Assembly (NCBI GenBank): GCA_964581485.1
Contig: CAZOOQ010000001.1
Coordinates: 8,529-64,273 of the forward strand
Direction of reading: 5' to 3'
DNA length: 55,745 bases
Origin: an uncultured Candidatus Saccharibacteria bacterium
GTDB taxonomy: Bacteria > Patescibacteriota > Saccharimonadia > Saccharimonadales > Saccharimonadaceae
Shown: positions 50,312 to 55,745 of the stretch, piece by piece
Layout of the letters: each line of letters opens with the position of its first letter
How positions within the stretch are numbered: the first letter of the stretch is position 1
The notes under the pieces: generated by a model
Seen by the model: only the letters and a program-made list of their open reading frames with translations
Told to the model about the DNA's origin: nothing
Databases searched by the model: none
Made by a program: the position numbers and the translations under genes

Positions 50312-51925
50312 TCAAGTAGTCTTAGAGTCACCTCTAGCTGCGCGGATGAGGCCAGAGAAGAGCGGGTGCGGACGCGTCGGGCGCGAGCGAAATTCGGGGT
50401 GAGCTTGGGTAGCGATGAAGTACGGGTGATCCACGGCTTCGACAAATTCGACGAGCTTGCCGTCGGGACTCGTACCGCTAATCACGAGACCGCCACACTC
50501 ATAGGCTTCGCGGTACTTCTGGTTCACCTCGTAGCGGTGGCGGTGGCGCTCGACGATGTCTTGCTCGCCGTAGAGTCGGTACGCAAGCGAATCGATGTCG
50601 AGGTGCGCGGGGTAATCCCCGAGTCGCAGCGTACCGCCGGTTGATTCTTTGCCTGCTTGGCCATCCATGATATAGACGACTGGTGCGCTGGTGTCTGCAT
50701 CAAATTCGGTGCTATTTGCGCCTTCGAGCCCGGCTTTGCGAGCGGCTGCGACGACCGCGACTTGCAGACCAAGGCAGATACCAAGATATGGCATATTGTG
50801 GTCGAGCGCGTAGCGGGCAGCTGCAATCTTGCCTTCGACGCCGCGCGTACCAAACCCACCAGGAACGAGCAATCCATCGACGGCAGCGAAATCTTCGTCG
50901 CCCGCCGTTTCTGCATTGATCCACTGCACCTCGAGACCTACTCCATCGCGCCAGGCGGCGGCCTTTAGCGCTTCGAGCACCGAGATGTAGGTGTCTTCGT
51001 TGTCCATGTATTTCGCGACCAGGCCGATACGCACCTCTTGGCTGACTGGCGCTAGCTGGCGCTCCAGCAGGTCTCGCCATTTGCTGAGGTCTGGTTTGTT
51101 GGTGGTGTGGGTAAACTTGTCGAGCAGGGGCATCAGACTGCTCTCTGCGATAATTTCTGGGATACGAAATACGCTGTCGACATTTGGCATCATGAGGACT
51201 GCTTCTTCTGGCACGCCGCCAAACATAGCGATTTTGCGGGCGATTGACTCTGGCGCCGGGTCGTCGGTGCGCACGATCACGACATCAGGCACGATGCCAA
51301 ATCCACGCAGATCGCTCAGCGCGTTCTGAGCTGGTTTGCTCTTGAATTCTTTGCTCGTCCCAATAAATGGCACGTAGACAACATGCACGTAGAGCGCGTT
51401 TTCGCGGCCGACTTTGCGACCAAATTCACGGATTGCTTCGACAAAGCTCAGGCCCTCGTAGTCGCCTACCGTGCCGCCGATTTCGACGAAATGCACGTCG
51501 CTGCCCTGGCTAGCTTCGATGATTGACTCCTGGATCGCTCCTGTCAGGTGAGGCACCAACTGGATAGTTTTGCCGCCAAATTTGCCAGCTCGCTCGTCGG
51601 CGATGAGGTCGCACAGCAGCCGCCCACTGAGCGTGGCGTTTTTTTGCTCGAGCTCGATATCGAGAAATCGTTCGTAGTGACCCAGATCGAGATCAGTCTC
51701 GGCGCCGTCCTTCGTCACGAAGCACTCGCCATGCTCCGCAGGATTCAAAAGACCCGCATCTACATTGAGATACGGGTCGCATTTTTGAATAGAAACAGTC
51801 AGGCCCTTGGCCTTGAGCACAGCACCCATGCTGGCCGCGGTAATTCCCTTTCCTACCCCGGAGAGAACACCCCCTGTCACGAAAATATATTGTGTCTTTT
51901 TGTCCATGTGATTCTTCACCCCCAT
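50312..51925 (-). CDS. pyrG: CTP synthase (start 51925 or 51907)
   Basis: TGGVLSGVGKG, KCDPYLNVD, PGGFG, GICLG, ERHRHRYE, QAHPEF. Confidence 0.97.
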   Translation of the reverse strand: MGVKNHMDKKTQYIFVTGGVLSGVGKGITAASMGAVLKAKGLTVSIQKCDPYLNVDAGLLNPAEHGECFVTKDGAETDLDLGHYERFLDIELEQKNATLSGRLLCDLIADERAGKFGGKTIQLVPHLTGAIQESIIEASQGSDVHFVEIGGTVGDYEGLSFVEAIREFGRKVGRENALYVHVVYVPFIGTSKEFKSKPAQNALSDLRGFGIVPDVVIVRTDDPAPESIARKIAMFGGVPEEAVLMMPNVDSVFRIPEIIAESSLMPLLDKFTHTTNKPDLSKWRDLLERQLAPVSQEVRIGLVAKYMDNEDTYISVLEALKAAAWRDGVGLEVQWINAETAGDEDFAAVDGLLVPGGFGTRGVEGKIAAARYALDHNMPYLGICLGLQVAVVAAARKAGLEGANSTEFDADTSAPVVYIMDGQAGKESTGGTLRLGDYPAHLDIDSLAYRLYGEQDIVERHRHRYEVNQKYREAYECGGLVISGTSPDGKLVEFVEAVDHPYFIATQAHPEFRSRPTRPHPLFSGLIRAARGDSKTT

Positions 51926-52073
51926 GGAATTCCAATATAGCACGAAGTCAGTCTTCTACGCTATATCTAGCGTGCTATGTTGTACATTCTACCCTACACC
52001 TAGTGGAAAGTCTTCAAGGCAGTCGCACGCATAGCGCGACTTCAAGAGGAGCGACTTCGGTTGTTTTCACAAT

Positions 52074-53745: not shown

Positions 53746-54792
53746 CTATTTGTCATCATTTTCGGCTGGCTCGTTCTCGGTGCCATCCGTCGTGTTCTTG
53801 AGTTTTGCCTCGGCGTTGCCGGCATTTACTTCGTAGCTGGTGTTGGTGCTCTCAAAGAAATTCACGAGTTCATAGGTGTCATTTGCTGTCGCCATCCACT
53901 TGGCGGGGTTACTGACGTTGAAATGTGGCTCAAACCCGAGCTCTTCGAGGCGGCGGTCAGTCAGATACTTGACGTATTGGTTGATGTAATCGGCGTTGAG
54001 ACCCAAGATGCCATTTGGCAAGAGGGCTTTGTTGTATTCCTCTTCCATCGCCACACCGTCGAGGATCATTTGCTTGATTTCCTCGGCGAACTCTTCGTCC
54101 TGCAAGTCTTCGTTTTCTTCGATGGTGGTCAGGATGAGGTTGATACCGAATTTCAAGTGCAATGATTCATCGCGAACAATCCAGTCGATGAGACTACCAA
54201 AGTTTCGGAGCAAGTTTCGTTGTCGGAAAGACAACGCTACCATGAAGCCCGAGTAGAACCAGATCCCTTCGAGAATAATATTGTAGGCAATAAGGTTTCG
54301 GATGAAGTCTTTTTTGCCTTCAGTCGTCGTGATATCCATGGTGTCTTCGGTCATGCGCTTGATAAAGCGTGTCTCGAACTCTTCTTTCTTGGCCATGGTG
54401 GCTTCGTCGACGTGTGCTGCGTAGGCTTGCTCACGGTCGATTGGGAATGTCTCGAGGACGTACTCAAACGCCATACAGTGGTTCGCTTCTTCCCACATCT
54501 GCTTGGCGAGGTACAAGTGACACTCGGCAGCATTGACGTATGGGTACACACCAAAAGCCAATGCTTTGTTCACCAGTAGCTCGTTTGGGTTGAAATAGCT
54601 CATCAGGAAGGTCACGGCGTGGCGCTCTTCGTCGCTCATTTTCTCCCAGTCGGCGAGGTCTTGTGCTAGCTGGATTTCGTTTGGAAACCACGTATTTGCC
54701 ACCGCCTGGTTGTACAAATCCATCGCCCACGGATAATGAATCGGCTTGAGCAGCAAGCCATCCTGAATGCCTGATCCTAAAATTTTTGCCAT
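53746..54792 (-). CDS. nrdB: Ribonucleotide reductase beta subunit, class Ic-like
   Basis: YPWA, EEANH, EGIWFYSGF, RDESLH, NFFE; Glu at ligand 1 and Phe at the radical-Tyr position. Confidence 0.95.
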   Translation of the reverse strand: MAKILGSGIQDGLLLKPIHYPWAMDLYNQAVANTWFPNEIQLAQDLADWEKMSDEERHAVTFLMSYFNPNELLVNKALAFGVYPYVNAAECHLYLAKQMWEEANHCMAFEYVLETFPIDREQAYAAHVDEATMAKKEEFETRFIKRMTEDTMDITTTEGKKDFIRNLIAYNIILEGIWFYSGFMVALSFRQRNLLRNFGSLIDWIVRDESLHLKFGINLILTTIEENEDLQDEEFAEEIKQMILDGVAMEEEYNKALLPNGILGLNADYINQYVKYLTDRRLEELGFEPHFNVSNPAKWMATANDTYELVNFFESTNTSYEVNAGNAEAKLKNTTDGTENEPAENDDK

Positions 54793-54801
54793 ATACCCCT
54801 C

Positions 54802-55041
54802 CTATTCCTTATTTACTTTGTCGAGATCTTCGAGCTCACTCCATGCAGCATCAAGTTGATCTGCAAAATACACCCTGCTCTCTTCGAGCTCGCACTTTGT
54901 GCTTGGTGTTGCACCGATTGGATTTGCAAGATTCTTCTCAAGCTCAAATAGTGCCATTACCGCGCCGTACATCGTCGACAGCAATCGTTCTCGTCGCCCG
55001 TACAACGCCTCAGTATCTGAATGTTTACGGCTATATTCCAT
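54802..55041 (-). CDS. Hypothetical small helical protein
   Basis: 79 aa, AGGA upstream, co-oriented within the nrd operon. Confidence 0.6.
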   Translation of the reverse strand: MEYSRKHSDTEALYGRRERLLSTMYGAVMALFELEKNLANPIGATPSTKCELEESRVYFADQLDAAWSELEDLDKVNKE

Positions 55042-55085: not shown

Positions 55086-55298
55086 CTACGATGCACTGAG
55101 CTCCATATCGAGTAGCGTTGATTGCCCCATTTGAGCATTGATGCGCTCCATCCGCTCTTTGAGAGCTTCTATCACCTCTGGAATTGGTGGCTGATTGGGG
55201 TCAATAATCGCGACACCTTGTGGTCCTAGCTCAACGCGGCTGTTAGGACGACTAGCTTGCAAGTCAAGAAATCCATCGGTAAGTTCAAACTTTGGCAT
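55086..55298 (-). CDS. Hypothetical small protein
   Basis: ATG overlaps the upstream stop (TAATG); MPKFELTDGFLDLQ... Confidence 0.6.
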   Translation of the reverse strand: MPKFELTDGFLDLQASRPNSRVELGPQGVAIIDPNQPPIPEVIEALKERMERINAQMGQSTLLDMELSAS

Positions 55299-55471
55299 TA
55301 TTGGCACCCCTCACACATCGTCAAATCTGCTGGATCGATTGGTGCTGCTACTTCACCACGAGAGCGCGCTTCGGCATCGGCCGTCGCTTGTGCTTCTTTC
55401 ATGGCGATGTCGATTGCTGCCAATTTTTCTTCTAGTGTCATGTTGTCGTTTACGATTGCGCTTGCATTCAT
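55298..55471 (-). CDS. 57-aa stand-alone NrdA-tail-like CxxC protein
   Basis: MNASAIVNDNMTLEEKLAAIDIAMKEAQATADAEARSRGEVAAPIDPADLTMCEGCQ; AGGGGG SD-like site; directly downstream of nrdA. Confidence 0.85.
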   Translation of the reverse strand: MNASAIVNDNMTLEEKLAAIDIAMKEAQATADAEARSRGEVAAPIDPADLTMCEGCQ

Positions 55472-55542
55472 GGTTGTTCCCCCTATTTTTTGCTTGGATT
55501 AGTTATACGTTGATTCGCTGTTCTTTATCCGTCGGTCATCTG

Positions 55543-55745
55543 CTACACTGCCTGTTTCTTGGCGAAGCCGAATCCGACTTTTTTGCCACCAGATTTTGCG
55601 ATTTCTTCGGTTTTGTTCACTCTCGTCGTGCTTTGTTCGGCCTGGTGCCGCGGCTTCATGTGCAGATAGTAGGTCGTTTTGAGGCCGCGTTTCCAGGCTT
55701 CCATATAGACTTTTTCCATGTCGTCGATACTACGTGTGTCGAGGT
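55543..55745 (-). CDS. nrdA: Ribonucleotide reductase alpha subunit, C-terminal 66 aa (runs off the window end)
   Basis: Manual translation: ...VYMEAWKRGLKTTYYLHMKPRHQAEQSTTRVNKTEEIAKSGGKKVGFGFAKKQAV*, containing the GLKTxYY motif. Confidence 0.93.
   Translation of the reverse strand, partial: LDTRSIDDMEKVYMEAWKRGLKTTYYLHMKPRHQAEQSTTRVNKTEEIAKSGGKKVGFGFAKKQAV

Follow-up and report, generated by a model that had tools for sequence, protein, structure and literature searches.

A candidate detached redox tail of class I ribonucleotide reductase encoded beside a cysteine-less NrdA in Saccharibacteria

Genes at the locus

The window analysed in this study, i.e., the whole stretch of 55,745 nucleotides from an uncultured Candidatus Saccharibacteria bacterium, closes with a ribonucleotide reductase (RNR) locus read from the minus strand. 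Its last 203 bases (55543..55745) hold the 3' end of nrdA, a gene for a class I RNR alpha subunit of the NF005101/PRK06539 type that runs off the contig; this part encodes the last barrel strand (profile match to PF02867 positions 499-523), the YY pair and a Cys-less tail. Within the final 66 residues, GLKTTYY is followed by a tail that reaches a conserved GFGFAK (ending GFGFAKKQAV before the stop), with zero Cys. The remainder of nrdA was located at the end of contig C10 as a 758-codon frame, the two contig ends overlapping by 69 nt with 65 matches. The family of the window's nrdA was assigned via this contig and a close relative, L039, which score 1212.7 bits (C10 part) and 1291 bits, respectively, against an NF005101/PRK06539 cut-off of 988. 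The architecture of this NrdA is an ATP cone plus a barrel, with the barrel whole in one ORF of about 800 aa.

A 57-codon ORF (55298..55471) begins 71 nt past the nrdA stop and is preceded by a Shine-Dalgarno-like AGGGGGA (55478..55484), 6 nt before its ATG; similar G-rich sites also precede many homologues of this gene. The encoded peptide combines a predicted helix (residues 13-38), a linker and a terminal P-I-D-P-x5-C-x-x-C-Q, and its redox core (residues 44-57, 55301..55342) is homologous to the C-terminus of fused NrdA relatives. The ORF lies in a different frame from nrdA, and the 71-nt gap contains two more stops in the nrdA frame as well as a stop in the peptide frame 10 codons before the peptide ATG. 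Thus, the layout on which the original prediction was built (NrdA ending without Cys, a 57-aa ORF 71 nt downstream, an SD-like site) is present in full in the DNA.

Two further small ORFs, of 70 codons (55086..55298; its ATG overlaps the peptide stop in TAATG) and 79 codons (54802..55041), are lineage-specific inserts between the peptide gene and nrdB. Each has a homologue in just one other of 442 loci (L004; 56% and 62% identical, respectively), and both were rejected on this ground as parts of a conserved system. Other loci carry different small ORFs at the same spot, which therefore looks like an insertion hot spot.

The nrdB gene (53746..54792) encodes an RNR beta subunit of 348 aa. Aligned to its best match, PDB 1syy (E=3.6e-66), which we take to be the Chlamydia R2, this NrdB replaces the radical Tyr with Phe and the first Asp ligand with Glu, and by these sequence features it carries the class Ic signature. 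The Phe is shared by all 129 of the 129 frames for an NrdB of this type in the loci compared. Class Ic beta subunits are described as using a Mn(IV)/Fe(III) cofactor (PMC4009431). Downstream of nrdB follow genes for a ZIP-family metal transporter (PF02535; 52074-52877) and a CTP-synthase-like protein (50312-51943), both on the minus strand; at another locus (L432), a ZIP-like gene stands directly after the peptide gene, which is of possible interest for a Mn/Fe enzyme.

The own genome (78% complete) encodes a thioredoxin (WCPPC), a glutaredoxin/NrdH-like protein and a thioredoxin-reductase-like protein, the latter just under the cut-off. Searches of the same 78% complete genome for a PF02867 gene other than nrdA, for NrdD or another class III RNR and for a second copy of the peptide returned none.

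Cysteine-less NrdA and the accompanying peptide gene

Across 46 NrdAs (L039 numbering), C230, N442, C444, E446, C459, Y761 and Y762 are invariant; from their E. coli equivalents we take these to include the active-site Cys pair, the N-x-C-x-E finger loop and the YY radical-transfer pair. C230, C444 and C459 are the only invariant cysteines, the NrdA of the window has these three catalytic residues plus two isolated non-conserved Cys, and seven of 47 full-length NrdAs have the three catalytic Cys and no others. A Cys pair relocated elsewhere in NrdA, which the original prediction had proposed to look for, is thereby ruled out.

The absence of Cys from the NrdA tail is a general feature of the loci that carry the peptide. 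Among 79 nrdA ends adjoining the peptide gene (drawn from 83 peptide-bearing loci, many of them near-identical and hence not independent), none has a Cys after KTTYY and nearly all finish in GFGF. A Cys-less GFG tail is likewise present in 120 of 120 nearest relatives of a Pontimonas-like NrdA, in a search that was seeded with such a tail. In a control set of 150 distant NrdA representatives, 36 of which were not scorable, 107 end in a Cys pair and seven lack Cys, two of these belonging to the present subfamily. A published survey gives a terminal CxxC for 1737 of 2022 class I sequences (PMC9531940). A canonical feature of class I alpha subunits, the redox Cys pair on the C-terminal tail of their own chain, is absent from this NrdA. 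In phage and plasmid collections, all matches to it fall under 60% identity.

Several lines of evidence identify the 57-codon ORF as a genuine gene. The pattern DP-x5-CxxC[QE]-stop occurs once among the 52,059 six-frame stops of the genome, namely in this ORF. A comparison with 17 ungapped homologues yielded pN/pS values of 0.04-0.34, with 514 of 858 differences at third codon positions; the ORF is under purifying selection. A single-query search with the peptide gave a match in 36/36 genomes of the same genus and in 0/24 genomes of other families, and 46 homologues share invariant K16, L17, I20, P44, D46, P47, C53 and C56. The peptide profile matches 3294 protein clusters. A Pfam domain is absent from all 120 that were listed, and those with a name are almost all called 'hypothetical'. 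The best 80 of 332 related genome loci belong mostly to Saccharibacteria or Patescibacteria. No family name for the peptide was found in Pfam, NCBIfam, PHROGs or the protein atlas (the latter queried via homologue P0001). Its AlphaFold model consists of a helix (13-38), a linker, a short helix (47-51) ahead of the Cys pair and a loose tail.

The pairing of peptide and NrdA was assessed in 121 genomes of the family (120 at >=95% completeness plus the own genome). NrdA of the NF005101 type is above the cut-off in 70 of these and the peptide profile matches in 73, with all 70 contained within the 73, while 48 genomes have neither. The three additional peptide-positive genomes comprise two (G556 and G587) in which a Cys-less nrdA end is cut by the contig edge and one (G593) with only a Cys-less remnant of the helix. 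These genomes are kin and the pairing partly reflects operon linkage; since kin are not independent, no test statistic is given for the co-occurrence. The expectation that the ORF would be conserved beside Cys-less NrdA is borne out both by the 79 Cys-free ends and by the peptide matches in 70/70 genomes with this NrdA. In a separate order-wide sample, a strong peptide match was obtained in three of 120 other genomes. The 30 best PF02867 loci in a set of 79 genomes comprise three with this NrdA and the peptide, one that is cut, and 26 that encode long proteins with a Cys-rich zinc-finger-like end, presumably class II NrdJ as judged by motifs.

Some variants of the peptide gene were also observed in this survey. 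A second copy of the peptide helix, a paralogue that ends in C-x-x-C-V and has no DP motif, is located just upstream of pyrG at L435 (genome G524). The Cys-less remnant in G593 (L433) is of the same paralogue type and is also located just upstream of pyrG; this NrdA was not found in that genome. At L436 (G036), frameshifts interrupt all three genes (nrdA, the peptide gene and nrdB), most probably through read errors of that assembly.

Fused, short and phage-borne forms of the tail

NrdAs of the same NF005101/PRK06539 subfamily and operon type, in Parcubacteria and in Aeromicrobium/Nocardioides-like actinobacteria, end in the same P-x-D-P-x5-CxxCQ on their own chain; like the peptide, these fused tails are predicted to be flexible, with a short helix just before the Cys pair. 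The peptide differs from them by its own N-terminal helix (in Saccharibacteria) and by being spread alone by phages. Two genomes from other families of the phylum (L159 and L163) encode such a fused NrdA, with GFG motifs in the tail and a terminal P-V-D-P-x5-CESCQ. The original prediction had regarded GFGF as a new terminus; GFG or KGF-like motifs lie within the tails of fused relatives, and the idea of a newly invented end is therefore rejected. A motif scan of metagenomes gave, among those listed, 81 matches in 80 loci: 14 are fused to such an NrdA, 12 are free ORFs beside Cys-less NrdAs and 55 have no nrdA in the fetched DNA (some of them by chance). The 12 free ORFs divide equally into six of the long helix form and six of a short form of 22-40 residues, and in four of the latter the start overlaps or touches the nrdA stop. 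This helix-less short form is located between nrdA and nrdB in Microbacteriaceae-like contigs. The NrdB clusters of short-form loci are mostly from Microbacteriaceae (Pontimonas, Leifsonia, Homoserinimonas, Glaciihabitans) but also from Cellulomonas, and those of fused loci are from Aeromicrobium, Nocardioides, Serinicoccus and Parcubacteria.

In profile-profile comparison, the peptide matches the 18 C-terminal columns of an alignment of mixed NrdAs (E=0.0003, probability only 40%, 16 columns covered). A quick tree of 30 hand-picked NrdA cores without tails (nine long-split, three short-split, 14 fused, four outgroup) placed the long-split and the short-split sequences in supported clades, both inside the fused forms, with the short-split clade as sister to two fused actinobacterial sequences. 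This topology needs two changes, either two fissions or one fission and one re-fusion. Among 28 longer proteins matching the peptide profile, no NrdA fusion was found, the matches being read-through or chimeric-looking calls and unrelated helical repeats; this is a weak test because fused tails share only the last 14 residues with the peptide. A different combination is present at L169 (G270), where the NrdA comes from another subfamily and has retained its Cys tail, and a free short ORF with nearly the same tail follows nrdB, about 1.1 kb past the nrdA stop.

Phages carry the tail as well. The long form is encoded among phage genes on 16 viral contigs, with an RNR barrel in none of the 15 searched (0/7 at >=90% complete). 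The motif scan of viral contigs gave, among those listed, 80 loci; the match sits in a closed frame no longer than 85 codons in 72 of them, and a fusion to NrdA was seen in none. An RNR barrel was found in 0/50 of these records searched (0/14 near-complete). For both sets together, nrdA was found in none of 65 records from phages with a tail peptide. Most phage versions are without the helix. Weak and unannotated tblastn matches occur in Pontimonas and Clavibacter phages; in phage phiPsal1, a short tail gene is unannotated. The same DP-x5-CxxCQ end is found on a phage glutaredoxin (L196:604-900, minus strand; a cluster of 73, with the tail kept in all eight members read) and on a phage thioredoxin (L249:604-1083, minus strand). 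These redoxin-tail fusions in phage contigs suggest a role in electron transfer. One phage (L024:4001-4308, plus strand) has two tandem tail peptides, a helix form of 55 aa and a form of 46 aa, with a stop/start overlap.

Overall, the fused relatives, the tree and the redoxin fusions support the view, advanced in the original prediction, that the NrdA tail has become detached as a separate protein; the function of a trans-acting shuttle is the part of that view that we infer.

Proposed role and known systems

Turnover of class I RNR is described as oxidising the active-site Cys pair, which is re-reduced by the tail pair, itself reduced by redoxins (PMC11903788; PMC4390871), and the pocket of the active site is reported to be too small to admit a redoxin (PMC4390871). 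Since redoxins cannot directly reach the turnover disulfide, a flexible Cys pair must enter the class I active site. The peptide quite likely works in trans as a dithiol shuttle that links thioredoxin/glutaredoxin to the active site, its last 14 residues doing the job of the tail. This is supported by the absence of the tail from NrdA, the lack of a substitute Cys pair and the presence of a selected gene that is homologous to the fused tail and accompanies this type of NrdA. In such a cycle, thioredoxin or the glutaredoxin/NrdH-like protein would reduce C53-C56 of the peptide, the DP-x5-CxxCQ end would then enter the emptied substrate site and reduce the C230-C459 disulfide (L039 numbering), and the oxidised peptide would go back to the redoxin. 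In yeast, the R1 tail reportedly acts on a neighbouring subunit, a point that carries no weight in the present argument.

The peptide may be a bound third subunit or a diffusible shuttle. The Saccharibacteria-specific helix, which is absent in short forms, would likely stabilise the peptide or tether it non-covalently. The original prediction suggested docking through this helix or through the GFGF end; as the helix is missing from Microbacteriaceae-like and most phage versions, it cannot be a general requirement. The GFGF end that NrdA retains is a candidate for docking, be it of the peptide, a redoxin or beta. When NrdA and the peptide were modelled as a complex (L039 pair, alignments A2 and A3), the score was 0.02 against a mark of 0.32, which counts neither for nor against an interaction. 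For a fused relative (L358), the AlphaFold model stays below pLDDT 50 across residues 770-850, a stretch that holds both GFG and the Cys tail, and a docking site was therefore not obtained from this model.

Considerations that weigh against a trans shuttle include the lower effective concentration of a tail without a tether, at a cost in kinetics, and the presence of free copies where they are not obviously needed, i.e., beside the tail-bearing NrdA of L169 and in nrdA-less phages. The latter observation would also fit the main alternative, in which the peptide, although derived from a tail, now regulates the enzyme by occupying the active site or by binding metal through its CxxC. It would then be an inhibitor, a redox sensor or a helper of the cofactor, and the re-reduction of NrdA would fall directly to a redoxin docked on the GFGF end or to small thiols. 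In B. subtilis RNR, binding of the tail and binding of the substrate are reported as mutually exclusive (PMC11903788), as would suit an occupant of the active site. In vitro, the active site can reportedly be reduced by small dithiols in the absence of the tail (PMC4078304), which makes a bypass chemically possible. We nevertheless regard a purely regulatory peptide as unlikely: in the 121-genome sample it accompanies every Cys-less NrdA of this type, its two Cys never vary and stand at the terminus, as they do in fused tails, the glutaredoxin and thioredoxin fusions point to electron transfer, and a redoxin acting directly would face the size limit of the pocket mentioned above (PMC4390871).

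Far less probable is a reconstitution of a covalent full-length NrdA by frameshifting, readthrough, ribosomal bypass or protein ligation, with the tail acting in cis, despite some loci where the gap is just 8-25 nt or stop and start overlap. Two gene orders exist, nrdA-peptide-nrdB (gap 8-124 nt) and nrdA-nrdB-(gene)-peptide (gap 1094-1655 nt); a whole nrdB thus stands between nrdA and the peptide in many loci, gaps range over 8-1655 nt with all frames represented, and recoding is therefore excluded. The stops in both frames of the window's gap, which the original prediction had already cited against readthrough and frameshift, agree with these gene orders, and the peptide ORF has its own start and SD-like site and is carried alone by phages. 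An assembly or sequencing error at the contig end, or a decaying remnant, can be practically dismissed, even though the peptide ORF lies 270 nt from the contig end and nrdA is broken across two contigs, as the identical arrangement recurs in single-contig genomes and across the family and the peptide is under purifying selection with 3294 homologous protein clusters.

Extending the shuttle reading beyond this locus, we tentatively propose that unfolded dithiol microproteins of 22-70 residues may serve as a free dedicated third component of class I RNR in Saccharibacteria and Microbacteriaceae, where repeated fission events would have produced them; reductase-less phages might carry them, alone or fused to a redoxin, as some of the smallest auxiliary metabolic genes, lifting a re-reduction limit on host dNTP synthesis. 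In RNR-less phages, the peptide would supply or tune the split enzyme of the host, which points to a new kind of phage-host metabolic contact. To our knowledge, a tethered Cys tail has been treated as near-universal in class I RNR. A natural untethered tail would make the re-reduction half-cycle testable by titration; the amount of tail, its mutations and the trapping of intermediates could all be controlled independently of the enzyme. It would also provide a likely function for thousands of 'hypothetical' proteins (the 3294 clusters) and for genes of 22-30 codons missed by annotation, and may account for some of the 285 class I sequences, among the 2022 surveyed in print (PMC9531940), that have no CxxC at their end.

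A search of the open literature (subscription papers and supplements being outside its scope) found no description of a separate class I tail, in line with the original prediction, to which no description of the arrangement was known; the RNR C-terminus surveys, in the portions available to us, discuss Cys-less ends for class II only (PMC9669993; bioRxiv 10.1101/2022.04.23.489257). The covalent class I tail (e.g., C695/C698 of B. subtilis NrdE) is the same-chain counterpart of the peptide, which here has its own gene, sometimes downstream of nrdB. Thioredoxin, glutaredoxin and NrdH are likewise small CxxC proteins that feed electrons to RNR, and fusions of such proteins to the tail occur in two phage families; the peptide differs in having no thioredoxin fold (no Pfam or NCBIfam match; a model of a long helix and a loose tail) and in carrying CxxC at its extreme C-terminus rather than where a helix begins, and it would act one step downstream of them. 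The phage NrdA-a/NrdA-b pair split by mobE is similarly a class I large subunit made from two polypeptides with new terminal sequences, but there the enzyme is reported to be cut into two large pieces by a mobile element, a homing endonuclease (PMC3045599), whereas here the barrel is whole, only the redox tail is separate and the 71-nt gap holds no endonuclease gene.

The closest functional precedent is the class II NrdJa/NrdJb of Pseudomonas aeruginosa, in which a second polypeptide likewise bears the redox Cys and acts in trans for the catalytic chain, NrdJb being reported to carry dithiol exchange for NrdJa (PMC4520616). That system is B12-dependent, and NrdJb is described as a folded domain of 150-220 residues with six conserved Cys and no similarity to the class I tail (PMC5704485), whereas the present peptides have 22-70 residues and a single CxxC. 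The defining features of NrdJa/NrdJb are absent from the window, where a class I alpha is accompanied by nrdB and the second chain has 57 aa and two Cys. Most other families of the order (L130-L155) have a long RNR with a Cys-rich end, which we read as class II NrdJ; this gene is often followed by a conserved ORF of 86-95 aa, without CxxC in the part read, that looks thioredoxin-like.
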